Origin: Chitinophaga pinensis
GTDB taxonomy: Bacteria; Bacteroidota; Bacteroidia; NS11-12g; UBA955
Reading direction: 5' to 3'
NCBI GenBank assembly: GCA_945865625.1
Contig: CAMBFD010000004.1
Span: 1,171-65,170, forward strand
Length of the DNA stretch: 64,000 nucleotides
Positions 26,690 to 34,981 of this stretch are shown piece after piece. Position 1 is the stretch's first letter; the number at the start of each line of letters is the position of its first letter. The notes beneath the pieces are model-generated. The model was not told the DNA's origin. It did not search any database and worked only from the letters and a program-made list of their open reading frames with translations. A program made the position numbers and the translations under genes.

Positions 26690-26762
26690 GGTATCGTAGC
26701 TCAGTTGGTAGAGCAAAGGACTGAAAATCCTTGTGTCGACGGTTCGATTCCGCCCGATACCA
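26690..26762 (+). tRNA. tRNA-Phe (anticodon GAA)
   Basis: Hand-folded cloverleaf. Acceptor GGTATCG/CGATACC, D-arm GCTC-AGTTGGTA-GAGC, anticodon arm AAGGA-CTGAAAA-TCCTT with GAA at 26723-26725. T-arm GACGG-TTCGATT-CCGCC has one A-C mismatch. Discriminator A; no encoded CCA. Confidence 0.9.
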
Positions 26763-26768
26763 CAACAA
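26742..26768. repeat. attL core (direct repeat copy 1)
   Basis: GTTCGATTCCGCCCGATACCACAACAA comprises the last 21 nt of tRNA-Phe plus 6 nt downstream. It is identical to 33806-33832. Confidence 0.9.
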
Positions 26769-26777
26769 GTTATTTCA

Positions 26778-26808
26778 AAACCCTGATAGTCAAAAGCTTT
26801 CAGGGTTT
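26778..26808. terminator. Hairpin terminator inside the element, serving tRNA-Phe and/or the 26851 gene
   Basis: AAACCCTGA-(13 nt loop)-TCAGGGTTT followed by TTTTT on the + strand, with an A-run on the other side. Confidence 0.5.
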
Positions 26809-26818
26809 TTTTATTTTA

Positions 26819-26842
26819 TGTTGTCGGTTTTGTTGTCGGTTT
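26819..26842 (+). repeat. Tandem 12-bp repeat (TGTTGTCGGTTT x2), candidate integrase arm-type sites, attL side
   Basis: Perfect tandem TGTTGTCGGTTT TGTTGTCGGTTT about 50 bp inside attL. The same 9-nt core occurs twice near attR (33675-33698). Confidence 0.6.
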
Positions 26843-26850
26843 TTGAAGTT

Positions 26851-27885
26851 TTAACTAAAAAACTTCATTGCAGATTCAATGAGTTTGGTCTTAAGATTAA
26901 CAACCGAATCTAAACCTTCAATTTCAAATTCATTACCATTAATCTCAATTTTTCTTTTGTTGTGTGTAATCAACAATCTGCAAATAACTTTTTTCTGATT
27001 ATCGTCAACCAGGATTAAAAAACTATTTTTTTGGTCTCTATATGAAATTCTATCAGACTTGATTTCTTTCTTTTGAATTAGAATTGTTTTGATTGCGTGG
27101 TAAATTTTTAATTCATCAGCAGTCGTTATAACTGCATTCCCATCTCTCTTTTGTTCTTCAATTGTTAATTTCTCTGTAACTTCTCTAAGATTTTTAGAGT
27201 TTATTAGTCCTTTGATTTTAACTTTTGCAGTATCGGTCATTCTTTGTCCACCCATTCGAGTAAAAATTGAACGAATAAATTCATCAGAAGGATTTAGTAA
27301 CTCATCAAAAAATGCATCTCCAAACTTATTCAAGAAATAGAATTCTTGCGCCTCTTCTAATAATTCTTTAAATGAATACTGTATTACGTCTCTTTTAAAT
27401 GTGGTTAATAACTCAATGACATTGTCTTCTATATCGTTTAATGAGAATTCAATAAAAGGAATTGGGTGAAGTGTGGTTTCTTTTGAAGATAAATCTGAAG
27501 TATAAATTTTCCAGTCCATACCATTTGTAAGAATGGCAATTTTAGCACTTGTTGTATTGATGAAATAATTGTTTAATTGACTTGCCTCTTTATCGGTTAA
27601 TTTCTTACCATATTTTTTACATTCTACAACAATTTCAGGTTTTAAACTTGATTTCTTATTGTTCACGAATAAACCAATATCTGCACGATCGTTTTTCTCT
27701 CCAAATCCAGCGGCAACTTCAGTTACCATATCATCAATTCTACTATACCCCAATATTTCTAAAATTGGTTCAATTAGAGTAAATCTAGTTTGAGGTTCAT
27801 TCGAACATCTTTCATCTAATCTACTAAAATCGAATTTAGAAATTGCCTTTTTAACTGCGGCTACTTGTTTTTTGTCAACTATCAT
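26851..27885 (-). CDS. HsdR_N-type PD-(D/E)XK nuclease-like protein with uncharacterised C-terminal half
   Basis: Start placed at ATG 27885. N-terminal pattern NEPQTRFTLIEPILEILGY ... DRADIGLF ... IVVECKK ... QLNNYF ... ILTNGMDWKIY matches the N-terminal domain of type I restriction R subunits and stand-alone relatives. The C-terminal ~200 aa have no motif I can name. Confidence 0.6.
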   Translation of the reverse strand: MIVDKKQVAAVKKAISKFDFSRLDERCSNEPQTRFTLIEPILEILGYSRIDDMVTEVAAGFGEKNDRADIGLFVNNKKSSLKPEIVVECKKYGKKLTDKEASQLNNYFINTTSAKIAILTNGMDWKIYTSDLSSKETTLHPIPFIEFSLNDIEDNVIELLTTFKRDVIQYSFKELLEEAQEFYFLNKFGDAFFDELLNPSDEFIRSIFTRMGGQRMTDTAKVKIKGLINSKNLREVTEKLTIEEQKRDGNAVITTADELKIYHAIKTILIQKKEIKSDRISYRDQKNSFLILVDDNQKKVICRLLITHNKRKIEINGNEFEIEGLDSVVNLKTKLIESAMKFFS

Positions 27886-28097
27886 AATAATAACTTGTTG
27901 CAAAGAAAGTGATTTTTAGCTTTGTATTCCATTTTCTGTAATATATTTGTTTATGTATAAAAAATTAAAATTGTTTGTTTTATTTTCACTCCTTACAGCA
28001 TCACGAGTGTCAGTTTTATCCCATTCCCATTGAAGAACTATTGTCTACCGTAAGACGTCGATAGTCTTTAAAAATTCAATCCTCCACAGGCGGATTA

Positions 28098-28553
28098 TTA
28101 TAAAGTTAAATAGCTAAATGTTCTTACACACCGAACTTCTAATCCGCTGACCTTCATATTCCAGTATTGTTTGCCATCAATGAAGAGCAGACACCGCGCC
28201 CATCCATAATTATCCTCATTGGAACTCCAATATTCACCAGATTTATCAAAACCGCCAATCTTATCCATGTTCTTATAAAGGCTATTTAATTCTTTTATTG
28301 TGGGTAATCTCCAATCGCTGTAACCATTTAAAACCAATTTTTCACAACCTGTCTCAGCATAAATCCAAGGCCTGGAAGTAGACCCATAATAACTTTCTGG
28401 ACCTAAATCTGTTGGAGCTGCAACCAAACCGTGTCCGTCTTTTTCATATACAATGACTCCGCCTCGTTTTATTGCGGGGGTTGTTTGAGAATATACCAAA
28501 CTTGTTAGCGTTACAATCGCCAATGTTAGCAGGAGTAGTTTTTTCATATTCAA
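28098..28553 (-). CDS. Secreted DUF1566-like protein
   Basis: 151 aa. Signal peptide MNMKKLLLLTLAIVTLTSLVYSQ. The GYSDWRLPTIKELNSLY motif is characteristic of DUF1566 (Lcl C-terminal-like) domains. Confidence 0.6.
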   Translation of the reverse strand: MNMKKLLLLTLAIVTLTSLVYSQTTPAIKRGGVIVYEKDGHGLVAAPTDLGPESYYGSTSRPWIYAETGCEKLVLNGYSDWRLPTIKELNSLYKNMDKIGGFDKSGEYWSSNEDNYGWARCLLFIDGKQYWNMKVSGLEVRCVRTFSYLTL

Positions 28554-28569
28554 TAATAGATAATATAAA

Positions 28570-28932
28570 TCACAAATTCAAAGTTACCGAATACTCTTCT
28601 TGTTTCAATTGAACCTCGCTTTGTCTAACTGGTAATCCAATACTGCGATTAAGCAGTGTTTCTAACGCATTTAAAGAGCCTTTCTTGGCATCTAACAACA
28701 ACGCCTTGCAGATTGTCAACTCGAGGATATTAGTATTGTCTCTGTCGATGATTTCCAACAGCTCATTTTGAGTCATTGCAAGCATCACAAGAATCACATC
28801 ATTAATCTCAGATTTAGCATATCCCATCTTTTTGAGCGTAGTCACAAATTTTGGTCTACGTCCCATCGGATTGGGTGAAGGTTGTCCCGATTGCCAAGGA
28901 GTCAGATGGTCTGTTTTAGGATTCAAGTTCAT
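28570..28932 (-). CDS. Small basic protein, function unknown (weak resemblance to phage small DNA-binding / small-terminase-like N-termini)
   Basis: 120 aa. The N-terminal SGQPSPNPMGRRPKF motif and the helical ...GSLNALETLLNRSIGLP segment recall phage-encoded small proteins found next to terminases. This is recollection only, not a match. Confidence 0.35.
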   Translation of the reverse strand: MNLNPKTDHLTPWQSGQPSPNPMGRRPKFVTTLKKMGYAKSEINDVILVMLAMTQNELLEIIDRDNTNILELTICKALLLDAKKGSLNALETLLNRSIGLPVRQSEVQLKQEEYSVTLNL

Positions 28933-28944
28933 TACGTATGACTG

Positions 28945-30162
28945 TTATATGCTTGTTTTCAATGCAACACTCTTCCACCGTCTGTATTCATCACTCAAAT
29001 ACTGGTCAACATCAAACAATGTCTGACTTGGATACCGATTCAATTCATCACGTTTGAAGTTGCTAATGCGATTGCGACATCTTTTCACCTCTCGTCCAAA
29101 CAACTTCTCGCTACAATACTTGCTCGTTGATTTTTGAATTGAAATATCTCTACCACAAGTTATGCATTGTCTCAGTGTCGCTTTCTTGTTATTCAATAAT
29201 ACATCTGTGTAATAATGGGACATTTCATTGTTTTGTGATACTGGTAATAATGGGACATCATTAATCAGTAATTCGCATTTTGACTGTATTAATTTCAAAT
29301 GGGTTTCTTGAATATTACTATTGGAATGTTCTTTTATTATCTCCCTGAAATCAGATAGCTTACGATTGAATCTTTTTGTGTTTTTTTCTATTCTCAATGC
29401 GTTCCATCTTCGGGGGTTGTTGTATTCTATAAATACAGACTTGTCAAAGGCATTTTTGATATTATTTAATGATATGGCATCGTCAGTGAAAATAAGCTCT
29501 TCAAATGTCTTTAAAATCGAGTTGCTCAATTTGCAATAGACTTCGTTGTTTAGAAGATCTGCGAGTGATTTTATGGTGATATTTTTTTGTTCGAGATATT
29601 GCATCTTATTCGCTTTGATTTCAAATCGAATAAGATTTTGAGTAAGTCCATACTGTCTACCTTTATCGTATGCCTTTACAGTGTAATTTGACCATTCGAA
29701 TTTTTTGAGATAACCCTTTCCCCTAAAAGTTTTGAGTTCATATTCATTTCCTTTGTGACTAATTATATTTTCTAAGATTTGACTTGAACGTCGTTGAGGG
29801 CAGAAATTTACGCCAAATTCTATTTGGTGAATTTTAAATTCATTTGCGGGAATTTCTGTGAATTGTGTGATTTGAATTATTGCATTCACGATATCTGTAA
29901 AATAGAAATCTTGATAATTATTTCCTAGGTGGAATTTATGAATGCTGCCACTCACATAGACTTTTGTTTTATTGATTGAAGTATACTTGCGGATTTTGAT
30001 TTTTAAATTGCCCAAACTTGCGTTATAACAATATGCACCATACTTATCCATAAATAATTCTCCAGTACTCAAATTAATTGGGTGCTCGAAATCAATTCGA
30101 GGATTTGCGAGTAAAATTTCCGCATGTCCACTATCAATTTCCATTGAAAGAAAGTCAATCAT
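28945..30162 (-). CDS. Putative replication initiation protein (phage gpII/CRI-like) with C-terminal zinc ribbon
   Basis: 405 aa. The N-terminus MIDFLSMEI... and VYVSGSIHKFHLGNNYQDF resemble the rep_II_X/Phage_CRI pattern (MIDWL..., GNP.K...G.N.FG). C-terminal CITCGRDI..KYCSEK..KRCRNRISN is a Cys-rich motif. Confidence 0.45.
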   Translation of the reverse strand: MIDFLSMEIDSGHAEILLANPRIDFEHPINLSTGELFMDKYGAYCYNASLGNLKIKIRKYTSINKTKVYVSGSIHKFHLGNNYQDFYFTDIVNAIIQITQFTEIPANEFKIHQIEFGVNFCPQRRSSQILENIISHKGNEYELKTFRGKGYLKKFEWSNYTVKAYDKGRQYGLTQNLIRFEIKANKMQYLEQKNITIKSLADLLNNEVYCKLSNSILKTFEELIFTDDAISLNNIKNAFDKSVFIEYNNPRRWNALRIEKNTKRFNRKLSDFREIIKEHSNSNIQETHLKLIQSKCELLINDVPLLPVSQNNEMSHYYTDVLLNNKKATLRQCITCGRDISIQKSTSKYCSEKLFGREVKRCRNRISNFKRDELNRYPSQTLFDVDQYLSDEYRRWKSVALKTSI

Positions 30163-30185
30163 TGTGACAAGTAATATATTTCAAC

Positions 30186-30491
30186 TTAAACTGCTCTTCC
30201 GCAGTTATTAAGTTGTCTTGAATTTATAGCATCAACAACCTCGGATTGCTTATAGCGAATTCTTGTTGCCATTCTATATGATTTTAGATAGCCACGCTTA
30301 GTCCATTCATATAATGTTGGGAGTGTAATTTTTAATAATTTAGCAGTTTCACGCCTTGTTAAAAAATCAGTTTCAGAATTTAAGTTATTTGAAATGTGAT
30401 TTATGTTAATAGAATCAGAAATTACTTTTCTGATAGTGTTTTCCAATTCCTCTATAGAAATTGGTAATAGACATAGGTTTTTTGTATCCAT
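30186..30491 (-). CDS. Excisionase/AlpA-like helix-turn-helix (HTH_17) DNA-binding protein
   Basis: 101 aa. LTRRETAKLLKITLPTLYEWTKRGYLKSYRMATRIRYKQSEV is the typical excisionase-family HTH of Bacteroidota integrative elements. Confidence 0.7.
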   Translation of the reverse strand: MDTKNLCLLPISIEELENTIRKVISDSININHISNNLNSETDFLTRRETAKLLKITLPTLYEWTKRGYLKSYRMATRIRYKQSEVVDAINSRQLNNCGRAV

Positions 30492-30622
30492 ACTATTATA
30501 TTAGCAAAATCAATAAAGTGTTACATAAAATTTGAAAAATAGTAGAAAAATGAGTTAAATTTGGATAGAATAAAAATCAATAATGTATTTACATCAATTG
30601 CTGTTGCAATATATTATCTTGT

Positions 30623-32353
30623 CTAATATAATAATTCAAAGCTAGTATCGTTTTGACATCGAGGTTTACCAGTATGTTTATCAGGTCTCAACCTTGCAGA
30701 CAAATAAGATTGACTTTTCCCAATTGACTTAGCAGCTATAGATATACTTGAAAATATCTCTCCTGTACTTTTATTTATGACTTGCAATGGAACACCACTT
30801 ACTCTTTGATGAGGTTTTAAATTAAAATGTTTGTTTAATAGTTCTAAAAACATCAACCTATTTGAAAAATTAAAAGTAAATTGTCTTTGTGTTTTTTTTT
30901 CAATAATTGTTACTCTAAGTTTTGTGCTCATTCCATCCAAATATGGTTTTGTTTGCTTAATTTTATAATCCTTCAATTCTATCATTAATTCATTGAAATC
31001 ACTTAATTTTTTATCAATCATAAAAGTATCTTCACTCAAAATATACTTATATATGGTTTCGTTTATTTCAACTAATGGTTTAATAATATTGATTTTTTTG
31101 CCATTTTTTTCTAATTCATTTTGGATATGAGGGATTAAATCTTCAATTTTTAATCTGCTAAAAAGTTGAGGTATCCTTATTAAAGCAATACCAAGTTGTT
31201 CGCAATATTGATTTTTAATGATATCCTTTTGCATCGTGAATGGATCAGTCAAATGTTGGTCACCATCATGTTCAAAAGCGATTTTTAGTTTATCACAATA
31301 TCCATCTAGTTCTAATAATCTATTACTAAATGGACTTTTTATTTGAGGATGTTTTATTTTGTCAAAGGAATGACCAGAAAATAACATTTTCTCAAATACA
31401 AATCTGCAAATTTTTTCACATTTTAAAACATCGTTTGGTAAATTATCGCCAAAATACCAGTAAAGCGGTCTCTCAAATTCTGTGCCTCTATATTGAGATA
31501 TTATTGGCAAAGACTTTTCAGATATATTATATTTTAATCCGAGATTTTTAGACAAGTTTTTTCGGTATTCATAGGTAATATTTCTATCAAATTCATTTTT
31601 TGTAATGAGTAATGTAAATCCCTTTTTTTCACATTGTATTCTTAATAAATCAAAAGTATAGAGTGTTTTTCTTTTACCTGAATTTGCAGAAATTTTGTTG
31701 CCATGTTCTGGTTTCCACCGTTTATCTTTTAAAAAGCTTTTCCCCCAAATATGTTTGTGATTTGAATTATTTGGGTCATAGATTGAATAACTGTCATTTA
31801 TGGTTTTCCATTCTTTTTCTAATAATTCACAGCCTTTTAAAGCAAGTTCACTTTTTAAAAAATTGAAAAGTCGTTGATTGTCATTTGTGGTTAATACCTC
31901 AAATGGTTTAATACAATAGATGCAACTTATTTTCTTATTTTTTGCGAATTGAACTCTCACATTAGTTGTAGATAAATTGACCGAAGGATGCCTTTCCTTT
32001 AATCCATATAAGAATTTTTTCCTACATTGTACTTTAATTTGAGTTTGATTTTCTTCCTTGAGTACAACTTTTTCAACCAAATCAAAATCAGAATCATTAA
32101 ATCGTTTTACAATTTCATTCCAATTTATATGTTCTGTTGCAGCGCTAAAAAAACTATTCTTTTCACCTTTTCTTGGGCAACCAGTTTTTTTGATTGCATT
32201 TGCTGTGGTTTGCCACTCATGAAAACAAATGCGGCATCTGAAATGAATTTGTGAATGCGCATTTGAATATTGATTAGATAAAATATCTATTTGTTTGCCG
32301 TCCGTAATTAGTTTTATTTTTTCAAATATTGATAATTGATTTTGATTCATCAT
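30623..32353 (-). CDS. Multidomain nuclease-like protein: Zn-ribbon-like N-terminus, Vsr/DUF559-like PD-(D/E)XK core, NUMOD1-like C-terminal HTH
   Basis: 576 aa. HFRCRICFHEWQTTANAIKKTGCP (treble-clef/DUF4379-like). LLELDGYCDKLKIAFEHDGDQH (endonuclease core pattern). LQVINKSTGEIFSSISIAAKSIGKSQSYLSARL (NUMOD1/IENR1-type HTH of homing endonucleases). Starts 14 bp after the integrase stop. Confidence 0.5.
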   Translation of the reverse strand: MMNQNQLSIFEKIKLITDGKQIDILSNQYSNAHSQIHFRCRICFHEWQTTANAIKKTGCPRKGEKNSFFSAATEHINWNEIVKRFNDSDFDLVEKVVLKEENQTQIKVQCRKKFLYGLKERHPSVNLSTTNVRVQFAKNKKISCIYCIKPFEVLTTNDNQRLFNFLKSELALKGCELLEKEWKTINDSYSIYDPNNSNHKHIWGKSFLKDKRWKPEHGNKISANSGKRKTLYTFDLLRIQCEKKGFTLLITKNEFDRNITYEYRKNLSKNLGLKYNISEKSLPIISQYRGTEFERPLYWYFGDNLPNDVLKCEKICRFVFEKMLFSGHSFDKIKHPQIKSPFSNRLLELDGYCDKLKIAFEHDGDQHLTDPFTMQKDIIKNQYCEQLGIALIRIPQLFSRLKIEDLIPHIQNELEKNGKKINIIKPLVEINETIYKYILSEDTFMIDKKLSDFNELMIELKDYKIKQTKPYLDGMSTKLRVTIIEKKTQRQFTFNFSNRLMFLELLNKHFNLKPHQRVSGVPLQVINKSTGEIFSSISIAAKSIGKSQSYLSARLRPDKHTGKPRCQNDTSFELLY

Positions 32354-32367
32354 TAGGCCTTTAATAT

Positions 32368-33660
32368 TTAACTATAAATCAAATTCACAAGTTCAGCATT
32401 TTCTTGTGTGGTAATTTTTAAATACTTCAAGAAGGATTCTTCTGTTCTGTGGCCTGTCATTAACATTATTTGTCTTGTAGTTATTTTGCCTGATTTAACA
32501 TGATTGGTTGCAAATGAGCGCCTCGCAGTTCTGTTTTCAACCAACTCCCATTTCATTTTTGAATTTTTATCAGAAGTATTTTTTTCATTTGTTTGAAAAT
32601 CTACTTCAATATTTAATTCAGGTAACATCTTTGCAACTTCCTTGATATATTGGTTTGCCTTTTGGTCAGTTATCAATGGAGGTAAACTATTTTTTGTAAT
32701 TCCTGAGTATTTTTTCAAAATATCTAAACCTATTGTATGAATAGGCACTGCAATTTCAACTTTCGTTTTTATAGATTTATTCCTCAAAAAGGTATGGCCA
32801 CGATCATTTTGATAAATATCATCTGGTTTGATTTGATGCCAATCTATTGGCCTTAGTGCTGTTTGAGTTGCATGAAATACGAATGAATCTCTTATCCTTT
32901 CTAATCTTGGATTTGAAGTCAAATCAAGCTGATACATTTTTGATAATTCTAAATCTGTTAAATAAATGCTGTCCACCGTTTCAATTGGCTTAATGAATCT
33001 TTTATCTAAATGACCTCTATGTAAAGTTATACCTCGCTCGATAGCTTCATTCATAAATAACTTTAAAGTGCCGATATGCTTTCCCACGGTATTTGTTTTA
33101 TATTTTAATTCAAAATGCATTAATTCTCTGAATTTCTTATAAAACTCTATGTCAATATCCTCGTATTTTAATTTGGCTTTGTAGTGTTTTTCATAAAGTT
33201 CTAAAACTCGAAGACATTGATTATATACACGAATAGTGGTATCTGCATATTTTCTACCTGTTCTTGGGTTTTCTGAGTTTTTCATCTCATTCAATAAGTT
33301 TTTAGAAAACGCCACTAATAATTTATTGTTTTGTTCCTTTTTTTTGTCATCAATGTTGAAGGCTGAATCTAAATGATTTTTGAATTCTGATTGATCTGGT
33401 ATTCGACCATTGGATTTTTGGAACTCCAGAAACAATTGTTCACACTTGGCCTGATAATTTAAAATAATTCTATTTTCTTCAACGTGAGAAGGATGTTTTA
33501 ATGTTTGTTTGACTTTTTGTTGAATCTTATCCCAAAATTGAGGATGAACCCTTACATCAGTGTTTCTTACGAGTCTATTATTATCCCATCTAATTACCAG
33601 TTGAATGGGTGTTAAACTTTCACCATTTGGATTACGCAAGTTGAAGTTGAACTTCGCCAT
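32368..33660 (-). CDS. int: Tyrosine site-specific recombinase (integrase) with N-terminal arm-binding domain
   Basis: 430 aa. N-terminal FNFNLRNPNGESLTPIQLVIRWDNNR..W resembles the Bacteroidota Arm-DNA-binding domain. It has a SAM-like core-binding region and C-terminal catalytic residues in ..ARRSFATN.. and ..LMTGHRTEESFLKYL (R, H-R, Y). Confidence 0.9.
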   Translation of the reverse strand: MAKFNFNLRNPNGESLTPIQLVIRWDNNRLVRNTDVRVHPQFWDKIQQKVKQTLKHPSHVEENRIILNYQAKCEQLFLEFQKSNGRIPDQSEFKNHLDSAFNIDDKKKEQNNKLLVAFSKNLLNEMKNSENPRTGRKYADTTIRVYNQCLRVLELYEKHYKAKLKYEDIDIEFYKKFRELMHFELKYKTNTVGKHIGTLKLFMNEAIERGITLHRGHLDKRFIKPIETVDSIYLTDLELSKMYQLDLTSNPRLERIRDSFVFHATQTALRPIDWHQIKPDDIYQNDRGHTFLRNKSIKTKVEIAVPIHTIGLDILKKYSGITKNSLPPLITDQKANQYIKEVAKMLPELNIEVDFQTNEKNTSDKNSKMKWELVENRTARRSFATNHVKSGKITTRQIMLMTGHRTEESFLKYLKITTQENAELVNLIYS

Positions 33661-33674
33661 TGTGCAAATATAAT

Positions 33675-33698
33675 ATGTTGTCGGATATGTTGTCGGTT
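33675..33698 (+). repeat. Tandem 12-bp repeat (ATGTTGTCGGAT ATGTTGTCGGTT), candidate arm-type sites, attR side
   Basis: Two copies of ATGTTGTCGG at a 12-bp period, starting 15 bp upstream of the int start codon and about 110 bp inside attR. Same strand and same core as 26819-26842. Confidence 0.6.
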
Positions 33699-33805
33699 TT
33701 TATTTTCTATATTTTATTTAATTGTATTTTTTTTGTAAAAATCATTGAAATTGTTATATTTACGTAGTTAAATGCGATAAAGCAAGAATAAAGTAAATAC
33801 ATATA

Positions 33806-33832
33806 GTTCGATTCCGCCCGATACCACAACAA
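33806..33832. repeat. attR core (direct repeat copy 2)
   Basis: GTTCGATTCCGCCCGATACCACAACAA, identical to 26742-26768. No upstream tRNA body is present here. Confidence 0.9.
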
Positions 33833-33840
33833 AACAAAAA

Positions 33841-33863
33841 AGCCCGCTACAGCGGGCTTTTTT
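33841..33863 (+). terminator. Probable original tRNA-Phe terminator, displaced by the insertion
   Basis: AGCCCGC-TACA-GCGGGCT followed by TTTTTGTTTTT, 9 nt after the attR repeat. Confidence 0.6.
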
Positions 33864-34076
33864 GTTTTTGATTTCAACCACCAAATCCAATGATTATTTG
33901 TATTGTAGTGCTTATCTCGGTTTCGCATCTTTAGTCGTTGGCTTTATCACTTTTATTCTTTGGTTGATGTCGCTGTAAAGACCTTCTTTTCATTTAATGT
34001 TACTCTAAATTTACACATTAAACTGTAGTATCTTTGCAACTAGGGATTTAAATCATTAAATGTCCCTCATGAAAAA

Positions 34077-34472: not shown

Positions 34473-34528
34473 CAATTTTTAAATAGAGTTCTTCGAACTT
34501 ATTTAATTTAAGATTGTTATTTAACCAT

Positions 34529-34981
34529 ATGAAGAAACTTGTTCAAGAGCAGTTTTTGCCAATTTCAATTGAAAAGGCATGGGATTTTTTTGCAACGCCA
34601 AAAAATTTGAATGAAGTTACGCCCAAAGATATGGTCTTTAAAATTATGGGTGACATTCCTGAAAAAATGTATCAAGGAATGTTCATTCGATATAAAATTA
34701 CACCAATGTTGAACATCCAATTGGATTGGTGTACTGAAATTACACATATTCAGGAGGGACAATTTTTTGTAGATGAACAGCGAAAAGGTCCTTACAATAT
34801 TTGGCACCACGAACATCATTTTAAATCGGTTGATGGTGGCGTTTTAATGACAGATATTTTGCATTATGACATTGGCTTAGGTATTTTTGGATGGGTTGCA
34901 AGCAAATTGTTTGTAGATGCCAAAGTGAAGCAAATTTTCGAATATAGGAAAGAGATTTTGGGGAAATACGAGTTTAAATAA
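34529..34981 (+). CDS. SRPBCC (START/polyketide-cyclase-like) family protein
   Basis: Start placed at ATG 34529 (MKKLVQEQF). The pattern ..W.FF..P.NL...TP.......G......G........P........W..EIT......FVDEQ..GPY..W.H.H.F matches COG4276-type SRPBCC proteins. Confidence 0.65.
   Translation: MKKLVQEQFLPISIEKAWDFFATPKNLNEVTPKDMVFKIMGDIPEKMYQGMFIRYKITPMLNIQLDWCTEITHIQEGQFFVDEQRKGPYNIWHHEHHFKSVDGGVLMTDILHYDIGLGIFGWVASKLFVDAKVKQIFEYRKEILGKYEFK

Follow-up and report, generated by a model that had tools for sequence, protein, structure and literature searches.

What kind of mobile element occupies the tRNA-Phe gene of the Bacteroidota contig CAMBFD010000004.1 (Chitinophaga pinensis, assembly GCA_945865625.1), and by what means could it spread? 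The stretch analysed here, hereafter the window, comprises 64,000 nucleotides of that contig, and the segment in question spans positions 26742-33832, where a first-pass annotation made from the letters alone had placed a compact integrative element with a satellite-like gene set. We conclude that an apparently intact element is integrated here, in a freshwater genome, and that it is one of a previously undescribed family of mobile elements of Bacteroidota, 4-7 kb in size. It is in our judgement very probably an integrative-replicative element, and we lean, by a narrow degree, towards the more specific proposal that it is a phage satellite whose DNA is packaged by the large terminase of a helper phage. 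As read from their sequences, these would be small integrative, phage-satellite-like elements with two uncharacterised protein families at their core, namely a replication initiator (Rep) and a protein with a DUF5681 domain.

A tRNA-gene integrative element is recognised by a direct repeat of the tRNA 3' end at its borders, with the tRNA itself intact at one of them, and both features are present here. The 27-mer GTTCGATTCCGCCCGATACCACAACAA has exactly two occurrences in the window, one at each border (Table 1), against 0 matches expected from 100 shuffles; the tRNA-Phe whose 3' end is repeated was called by both ARAGORN and Rfam, and the two copies delimit an integrated unit of 7,064 bp. The GC content lies between 0.27 and 0.31 within this island and between 0.33 and 0.39 in its flanks. 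Seven open reading frames (ORFs), all on the minus strand and located as the first-pass annotation had them, form three blocks, with gaps of 12-23 nt inside the blocks and of 131 and 194 nt between them. The hairpins noted at the two ends are both strong folds, the outer one being the original chromosomal terminator of tRNA-Phe, displaced by the insertion, and the inner one (26777-26809) probably serving as the replacement tRNA terminator, a function that may extend to terminating the last element gene. The replacement role had been suggested earlier and gains from comparison, as the same arrangement of arm repeats, hairpin and core, with the hairpin in the same position, is found at the end of one related locus (L010; the handles L and P denote related loci and proteins) and in the circle junctions (attP) of two others (L144 and L141). 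A tandem pair of TGTTGTCGG inside each end, absent from the first-pass annotation, provides candidate arm-type sites for the integrase: at the place of the tRNA-proximal pair (26819-26839), paired repeats of variant sequence are present in L010, L026, L047, L141 and L144, and the integrase-proximal repeats are kept upstream of int in L047/L048 and recur at this place in the attP of L141 and L144.

The tRNA was the only finding of the Rfam scan, the remaining matches being terminator-like noise, and a sigma-70 promoter scan, ill-suited to Bacteroidota, performed no better than on shuffles. A 73-aa ORF at 33707-33928 on the minus strand spans attR and the terminator, has no family match and is probably spurious. 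At the tRNA-proximal end of L010 (L010:8640-8786), the arms and hairpin are followed by a sequence resembling a tRNA 3' end (GGTTCGAATCCCTTCC...), in which ARAGORN called no tRNA.

The chromosome on either side is ordinary, with genes for a GH20 hexosaminidase, TMEM164-family and CMD-family proteins, PagL and a fatty-acid desaturase. The closest genome, a metagenome-assembled genome of a Lake Erken Bacteroidetes (L001), shares 95% nucleotide identity, and its contig stops just before the tRNA. An exact 42-mer of the reconstructed empty site (attB) had no match in GTDB genomes, after which the evidence for unoccupied sites was drawn from synteny of the flanking proteins. In two metagenome-assembled genomes retrieved in this way (L002 and L003), tRNA-Phe is followed directly by a terminator hairpin, with no island and no second copy of the core, which is the arrangement that had been proposed as a check for an empty attB; their aligned flank segments are 72-79% identical to the window, or 74-78% as counted over the aligned flanks, and the region further downstream in L002 is not strictly syntenic with it. 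L002 and L003 are thus unoccupied sites, though not base-perfect attB sequences, and the view of the locus as an intact-looking, site-specific tRNA-Phe element that is missing from related genomes holds. In L002, the tRNA-Phe terminator is separated from the orthologue of the window gene at 34514-34981 by about 3.7 kb of unrelated DNA (L002:11230-14928) without any repeat of the tRNA end, so that the region downstream of this tRNA evidently varies in other ways too. In another genome (L026:402-941, GCA_038153365.1), tandem AAAGACCAC x2 stands between a 122-aa DUF5681 gene and the tRNA-Phe 3' end, at a contig end and beside a TMEM164-family gene; the same tRNA-Phe site would seem to be occupied here by a different element, with other arm repeats.

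Look-ups of homologues of Rep and the DUF5681 protein, together with a scan of Joint Genome Institute (JGI) metagenomes that contributed 60 loci, yielded a family of about 70 metagenomic loci, most copies of which come from lake metagenomes. In nearly every locus with enough sequence, the genes follow the order integrase, HTH_17 protein, Rep and then often DUF5681, and at 1-2.5 kb past Rep there is a tRNA gene (Phe, Arg, Leu, Glu, Gln or Pro) whose 3' end is turned towards the element. All nine integrated relatives (9/9) are flanked by a repeat of 15-34 nt of the tRNA 3' end, situated 200-300 nt upstream of the integrase gene, and their units measure 5,167-7,111 bp. L047/L048 share 21 nt of the tRNA-Phe core with the window, carry paired CCGACAACA arm repeats upstream of int and have a different host terminator; the integrase of L047, 73% identical to that of the window, uses the same core in another host flank. 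The literature that was found holds no description of such elements in Bacteroidota, in agreement with the suspicion that the family was undescribed. A more distant branch (L015/L016:8118-8993 and equivalents), with a Rep of 29% identity, carries a weakly RteC-like gene between int and the helix-turn-helix (HTH) gene, a HEPN_RiboL-PSP-like gene after Rep and, by a tRNA-Arg at the end, an HSDR_N_2 gene (L014).

The strongest evidence on the nature of the element comes from relatives that are found free. At least six of them assemble as circles or tandem repeats of 4.0-5.2 kb: exact terminal overlaps of 127 nt close L164 and L165 into circles of 5,177 and 4,608 bp; L143 and L144, which stem from two samples, represent a single 4,040-bp unit in circularly permuted form and agree at 99.6% identity; circular permutation likewise relates the members of the pairs L141/L142 (about 4,137 bp) and L145/L146 (about 4,794 bp); and L135/L136 show a tandem period of 4,695 bp, with copies 98.3% identical. 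The smallest circles, of 4.0-4.1 kb (L141-L144), hold the four core genes only. Through the junctions of L141 and L144 run, in order, paired arm repeats, the hairpin, a core resembling a tRNA 3' end, about 110 nt, a second set of paired arm repeats and the start codon of int. These two attP sequences equal the attL-side sequence of the window joined to its attR-side sequence, and for this reason the element type is concluded to be one that excises and is maintained or replicated as a circle or multimer, the window holding an integrated copy of it. The earlier suggestion that the element may still be mobile is plausible in the light of these free relatives.

The protein behind the replicative part of this description is the 405-aa Rep. 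Its AlphaFold2 model, with a predicted local distance difference test score (pLDDT) of 87, retrieved in Foldseek the initiators RepDE/RepD (4cwe/4cwc) at E values of about 1e-8 (4cwe E 1.2e-8, probability 1.0) and RepSTK1 (4cij) at 3e-5, and nothing beyond Rep_trans initiators, so that the protein is predicted to have the Rep_trans fold. An alignment of 32 sequences shows invariant GSxH, ExGxN, KxYDK and RxExK motifs and a C-terminal ribbon of four cysteines; Y165, within KxYDK, is invariant together with E115, R179 and E181 (alignment A1), and the equivalent residues are invariant across 31 diverse family representatives. Tyr165 is accordingly placed as the candidate catalytic residue, in a setting of nearby acidic and basic residues which we take to resemble the active-site motif of the pT181 family. 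The description as a gpII/CRI-like Rep needs amending: the Phage_CRI (PF05144) match is N-terminal only and, at 17.6 bits, below the Pfam threshold of 21.7, and Pfam Rep_trans gave no significant match, the kinship with rolling-circle initiators being carried instead by the predicted structure. Compared with the initiators that share this predicted fold (pT181 RepC/RepD and RepSTK1, gpII and MobT), the element Rep has an extra helical domain besides the zinc ribbon, and its family occurs in integrative elements and phages of the Bacteroidota rather than in plasmids of Firmicutes. An exhaustive profile search found 3,883 clusters (1,936 at E<=1e-30), and none of the 31 representatives matched Pfam Rep_trans (PF02486) or Phage_CRI above threshold; because of this size, the invariant residues and the lack of coverage, the family is a large, uncurated branch of the Rep_trans fold. 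No homologue was found in the 72,556 plasmid records of PLSDB, no match among PDB sequences and one weak match among cultured phages (tblastn). In a complete tailed phage, a homologue is encoded in the early region beside an O/DnaD-like loader, which favours a role in replication.

Integration is assigned to the 430-aa protein, a tyrosine integrase which we presume to be of the CTnDOT/NBU arm-binding type. Arm-DNA-bind_5 and Phage_int_SAM_5 domains are recognised in it, and it is matched by phrog_1 but by no Pfam catalytic-domain model. The R-K-H-R-H/W-Y residues of tyrosine recombinases are present except for the first histidine: R270, K298, R380, H404 and Y413 are invariant (alignment A4), and the His of HxxR is replaced by Arg377. 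Since the integrase of L047 has the same replacement, Arg377 is not regarded as a lesion; the more distant L015 and L017 have His at this position. The 101-aa HTH_17 protein is, by its sequence, probably an excision factor and/or a regulator. It exceeds the TIGR01764 cut-off of 28.8 bits, and its gene stands directly upstream of Rep in nearly all related loci; of the earlier label, an AlpA/excisionase-like HTH protein, the excisionase part is borne out by HTH_17 and TIGR01764 and the AlpA part is not, the Pfam AlpA model giving no match.

The fourth core gene, described at first as a 120-aa basic protein, is present as stated and can now be identified as a DUF5681 protein, a putative packaging specificity factor. 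Its PF18932 score falls just below the cut-off of 27.5 bits, and a profile search gathered 459 family members, the named ones all being 'DUF5681 domain-containing protein' from Bacteroidia or Bacteroidota. It is the best-conserved core gene: in elements whose Rep is 53-65% identical to that of the window (L010, L047, L131 and L138), the DUF5681 copies are 84-98% identical, with 62-68% for the HTH protein and 40-73% for the integrase, where seen. In the four-gene circles L141-L144, too, it is the most conserved of the genes. Such conservation could reflect constraint by an external partner or recent exchange of the gene. As a side observation, a 90%-identical 120-aa gene is found in L018-L025, a different type of element without this Rep, where its neighbours are an AAA_14/DUF4143 ATPase, proteins of 195 and 191 aa and DUF5763, with AAA_24, DUF3871 and RadC coming next in some loci; a tRNA-Ser(GGA) adjoins this element in L018 and L019.

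What distinguishes the DUF5681 protein is the company that its homologues keep in phages. The viral proteins nearest in structure to the 120-aa model belong to uncultured tailed phages and are themselves DUF5681 proteins (47% and 36% identity), and the phage homologue P0135, 42% identical over a full-length alignment, is encoded by a gene that overlaps the start of a Terminase_3-type large terminase gene (phage contigs L041-L043). In IMG/VR, at least 328 viral contigs carry a DUF5681 relative. Neighbours were counted for the best 80 loci, of which 63 show a downstream ORF, 150 codons or longer, that begins no more than about 500 nt away; some others are truncated by the end of their contig. 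A large terminase (TerL) gene lies directly downstream in 46 of the 63, the downstream ORFs matching Terminase_6N in 46 and Terminase_3/3C in 25, sets that may overlap. A group-1 glycosyltransferase directly follows in 11/63, two of which have, where visible, a weak match to a large terminase farther downstream, and a methylase in 2/63; the glycosyltransferase loci fall among L077-L101 (e.g. L080, L084, L088, L094 and L096). Many viral contigs with the DUF5681-terminase pair measure 30-38 kb. Genes for more distant DUF5681 proteins likewise stand just upstream of that for the large terminase, one in an actinophage contig and another in Salmonella phage STGO-35-1 and its 300 relatives; the STGO-35-1 protein was detected in virions (PMC8954984). 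A position directly upstream of TerL is a property of the phage homologues and not of the element copy. On this evidence the 120-aa protein is, by sequence, a homologue of a phage gene in small-terminase position, and DUF5681 would likely be a small terminase.

Taken together, the genes suggest the following cycle. The arm-binding integrase would recombine the 21-27 bp core with the tRNA 3' end, aided by the flanking paired arm sites, and the tRNA would keep a terminator because the element brings its own hairpin. The HTH_17 protein would direct excision and/or switch the element on, whereupon Rep would nick the origin through Tyr165 and rolling-circle replication of the circle would generate multimers. 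DUF5681, being homologous to what is presumed to be the small terminase in uncultured phages (contigs of roughly 30-38 kb), would then recruit the helper's large terminase to element DNA, leading to concatemers packaged in helper capsids and transduced. It is the captured small-terminase homologue as fourth core gene that points to helper packaging, and thus to a phage satellite. That five copies of 7.06 kb, or eight to nine of 4.04 kb, amount to about 30-38 kb is a numerical observation only; on the satellite reading, such multimers would about fill the phage head. The layout agrees with what satellites have in general, as the first-pass annotation had noted: genes for integration, for excision or regulation and for own replication are present and virion structural genes are not, Pfam and PHROG scans having found no capsid, portal or TerL gene, and no structural remnant, in the element or the window.

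Several points weigh against helper packaging. The small-terminase label is given to the DUF5681 family in no database or source examined, so far as these go, and gene position is all that speaks for the role. The AlphaFold model of the 120-aa protein is of moderate confidence (pLDDT 68), and its Foldseek search against the PDB returned no solved small terminase (no match at E<=1); the nearest approach was a weak BFVD match to a mycobacteriophage small terminase (E 0.2). A comparison of the 120-aa family profile with the STGO-35-1 protein by hhalign showed no similarity, which is why that phage supports a link at the level of the Pfam family only, and tblastn searches of cultured phages with the 120-aa protein, P0135 and the actinophage DUF5681 gave no match. 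Many family members, including the circular L164, L165 and L145/L146, have no DUF5681 match when searched with the seed proteins, so that the protein is either too divergent to detect or not universal in the family. No helper phage has been identified, and packaging is proposed from the genes; circular contigs indicate free circles or tandem copies, not encapsidation, and excision of the window's own copy was not seen. Finally, Rep shares with MobT relaxases a fold that would be compatible with conjugative mobilisation.

The alternative that survives best, which we nevertheless consider unlikely, is an integrative rolling-circle plasmid that spreads passively, by generalised transduction, vesicles or transformation, with DUF5681 acting as a regulator or as a replication or partition accessory that phages happen to encode near their terminase. 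The existence of circular forms with a plasmid-type Rep would suit it, as would the lack of a structural match between the 120-aa model and a solved small terminase, and so would a set of 2.7-kb circles that look plasmid-like, having a Rep-like gene and DUF5681 and no integrase. Against these stand the TerL-adjacent or overlapping position in 46/63 viral contigs, which a passive plasmid hardly explains, the conservation of DUF5681 above that of Rep and integrase, which suggests a constrained external partner, and the absence of any Rep homologue from the plasmid records searched. The 2.7-kb circles were encountered through P0122 in JGI and ENA contigs (L033-L040). Their 2,737-bp unit has five or six small genes, among which are one for a 359-aa protein bearing the Rep_trans-like motifs KCIYDK and LMRDELR, one for a DUF5681 protein of 130 aa and an ORF of ribbon-helix-helix-like type, and occurs on at least 70 contigs, either singly with terminal overlaps or as tandem copies, which are 99% identical in L033 and 78-81% identical in L034 and L035. 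That these circles and the elements together make up a new lineage of minimal Bacteroidota satellites, run by at most four genes, is a tentative extension of the helper-packaging proposal, which we hold to be somewhat doubtful.

A non-canonical integrative mobilisable element, in which Rep would be both a MobT-like relaxase and an initiator, the circle would move through the mating pore of a co-resident element and DUF5681 would be a DNA-binding accessory of the relaxosome or replisome, seems to us rather improbable. NBU1 and NBU2 integrate into tRNA 3' ends. The MobT relaxases of ICEBs1, Tn916 and ICESt3 have the Rep_trans fold, and many streptococcal MobT elements lack a coupling protein (PMC5704250, PMC6499999); among Bacteroidota, NBU1 has a tyrosine integrase and site-selective integration (PMC5704250), and a weak RteC match adjoins int in L015 and L016. 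However, MobT is described in Firmicutes, the mobilisable elements of Bacteroidetes using MobP (PMC5704250), and neither the element nor any of the related loci that were annotated gave a match to a relaxase, coupling-protein or type IV secretion system family. In phages, moreover, a Rep homologue sits in a replication module and the DUF5681 homologues adjoin TerL rather than conjugation genes. The claim that the element has no relaxase or conjugation genes stands as regards canonical Mob and coupling proteins, none of which is matched, but was too strong as worded, because MobT relaxases have the fold predicted for Rep. A decayed prophage or fixed, immobile island, with the nuclease genes as an anti-phage defence module, is very improbable: two nuclease-like proteins are indeed present and the window's own copy was not observed excised, yet the repeats are perfect, the tRNA intact and the catalytic residues of the integrase conserved, L002 and L003 lack the island, PADLOC finds nothing, the nuclease genes sit in different slots without being co-inherited, cassette exchange between near-identical copies implies recent activity, and a decayed prophage in particular was rejected for its lack of structural remnants.

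Helper packaging aside, the remaining three genes of the element (Table 1) are cargo, carried in two slots, one between int and the HTH gene and the other downstream of DUF5681. In the first slot, the 576-aa protein shows zinc-finger motifs and a DUF2726/Vsr-like 'EHDGDQH' motif, its DUF4379 and DUF2726 matches being weak; L050, whose Rep is 93% identical, lacks the gene, and L010/L133 have a 607-aa relative of 28% identity in the same place. A reading of this protein as homing-endonuclease-like, with a Vsr/DUF2726-like core and a NUMOD1-like C-terminus, is no more than a lead, no HMM confirming it at E<0.01. The second slot seems to collect secreted or surface proteins. It holds the protein annotated first as DUF1566 and secreted, now matched to Lcl_C (PF07603), and two Lcl_C genes in L047. 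In L148, whose Rep, DUF5681 and endonuclease are 95%, 97% and 100% identical to those of the window, the DUF1566 gene has been exchanged for 2.3 kb (L148:733-3047 against window 27999-28536) between flanks of 96-100% identity; the insert encodes a 229-aa TPR protein and, as read by eye, a 356-aa LamG-like protein with a C-terminal tail of the type IX secretion system type. The terminal gene, for the 350-aa protein, agrees with the HsdR_N-type PD-(D/E)XK label, having an HSDR_N_2 match and a full-length match to phrog_4225 'endonuclease' (E 1.6e-47); copies of 88-100% identity occur in L134 and L148, and a 270-aa HSDR_N_2 gene lies at the same end in L014. Sequence searches of the PDB with the 576-aa and 350-aa proteins gave no match, and PADLOC, run on the nuclease-like proteins, gave no significant match and no defence system. 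The idea that the two form one defence module is thus unsupported, since they are swappable cargo of separate slots and are not co-inherited; phage interference and surface modification are possibilities for the nuclease-like and the secreted proteins.

Table 1. Coordinates of the element, its ends and its genes in the window, with the evidence for each feature
Feature	Position	Strand	Evidence
tRNA-Phe(GAA), intact; its 3' end is the integration target (attL side)	26690-26763	+	ARAGORN; Rfam tRNA 69.7 bits
attL core: last 21-22 nt of the tRNA and adjoining nucleotides	26742-26768	+	exact 27-nt repeat
Hairpin and T-run supplied by the element	26777-26809	+	fold -15.8 kcal/mol, z -5.5
Tandem TGTTGTCGG x2, candidate integrase arm-type sites, tRNA-proximal arm	26819-26839	.	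repeat family D3
350-aa HSDR_N_2 / PD-(D/E)XK-type endonuclease-like protein, terminal accessory gene	26851-27903	-	PF13588 E 4.8e-12
151-aa secreted Lcl_C (DUF1566) protein, exchangeable slot-2 cargo	28098-28553	-	PF07603 E 5.4e-14
120-aa DUF5681 protein, core gene, putative packaging specificity factor	28570-28932	-	PF18932 26.2 bits; phrog_15125
405-aa predicted rolling-circle initiator, Rep_trans fold, C-terminal 4-Cys zinc ribbon	28945-30162	-	AlphaFold2, Foldseek
101-aa HTH_17 excisionase-family DNA-binding protein	30186-30491	-	PF12728 E 1.2e-9; TIGR01764 32.1 bits; phrog_66
576-aa nuclease-like protein, slot-1 cargo between int and HTH gene	30623-32353	-	phrog_559 E 1.1e-15
430-aa tyrosine integrase, N-terminal arm-binding domain	32368-33660	-	PF13102, PF17293, phrog_1
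Tandem TGTTGTCGG x2, candidate arm-type sites, integrase-proximal arm	33676-33696	.	repeat family D3
attR core: duplicated tRNA 3' end	33806-33832	+	exact 27-nt repeat
Original chromosomal tRNA-Phe terminator, displaced by insertion	33831-33868	+	fold -24.9 kcal/mol, z -7.6

Bacteroidota dominate many freshwater, marine and gut communities, and in the literature found, experimental work on satellites is almost confined to Proteobacteria, Firmicutes and a few actinobacteria, with none described for Bacteroidota. The locus offers a concrete and widespread family (about 70 loci, thousands of Rep clusters and at least 328 viral contigs with the partner gene) with an unusually small core of four genes and with free circular forms visible in public assemblies. 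It also suggests testable functions for two unannotated families, the Rep_trans-fold initiators and DUF5681, and its two cargo slots, exchanging nucleases and surface proteins, bear on how lake bacteria may gain phage-resistance or surface traits.

Among known satellites, the pathogenicity islands of Staphylococcus aureus (SaPIs) and other phage-inducible chromosomal islands (PICIs) have an integrase, a regulator, an initiator and a small-terminase homologue that redirects the large terminase of the helper, and this redirection is the very step proposed for the 120-aa protein. PICIs measure 10-15 kb, use initiators of the primase-helicase type, live in Firmicutes and Proteobacteria and often carry genes for capsid size or packaging interference; they have no protein family in common with the element except the integrase superfamily. 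Markers of P4-like elements (P4 alpha primase, Sid, Psu, Delta), PICIs (pri-rep, morphogenesis) and PLEs (RepA, other markers) were all missing in Pfam, PHROG and NCBIfam scans, SatelliteFinder not being among these, and because these families are absent the element is none of the three. 'Charybdis' elements and jumbo-phage-transduced islands were set aside as unrelated. NBU1/NBU2 and Tn4555 are closer in host, being small, helper-dependent Bacteroidota elements with a site-selective tyrosine integrase (PMC5704250), but they are equipped with a MobP relaxase and a transfer origin, owe their movement to conjugative transposons and have no counterpart of Rep or DUF5681; without a MobP relaxase, the element is not of the NBU type.

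A close parallel in organisation is with the PICMIs of Vibrionaceae, phage-inducible minimalist islands in the chromosome, which at about 6 kb combine an integrase, a small HTH regulator and a replication protein with few accessory genes and no capsid-remodelling genes (PMC10803314). Rolling-circle-like replication and concatemer packaging form a further likeness, for the element only a proposed one, as PICMI packaging and transduction have been shown by experiment (PMC10803314) and the element is known from genes alone. The element is nevertheless not a PICMI: PICMIs integrate next to fis, not in a tRNA, have a primase in place of a Rep_trans-fold nickase, lack a terS homologue, whereas the element family carries a gene homologous to one in small-terminase position, and belong to another phylum; the tRNA-Phe target, the Bacteroidota host and the absence of a primase and of a Pfam AlpA match rule out identity. 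The virion-encapsidated integrative mobile elements (VEIMEs) of marine plankton are likewise small integrative elements of environmental bacteria, including Flavobacteria, with tyrosine integrases, some modules having small-terminase homologues, excisionases or plasmid-type replication initiators (PMC9618062). VEIMEs are packaged as concatemers and defined by their presence inside virus particles, whereas the element is known from genes and its loci come mostly from lake metagenomes; the main text of that study mentions no Rep_trans-type Rep, DUF5681 or tRNA targets (PMC9618062). Compared by description only, the element may fall within the broad operational concept of a VEIME. If the helper-packaging proposal is true, these elements would rank as the smallest of known satellites and as the first to be described in Bacteroidota, and DUF5681 would be defined as a small-terminase family.

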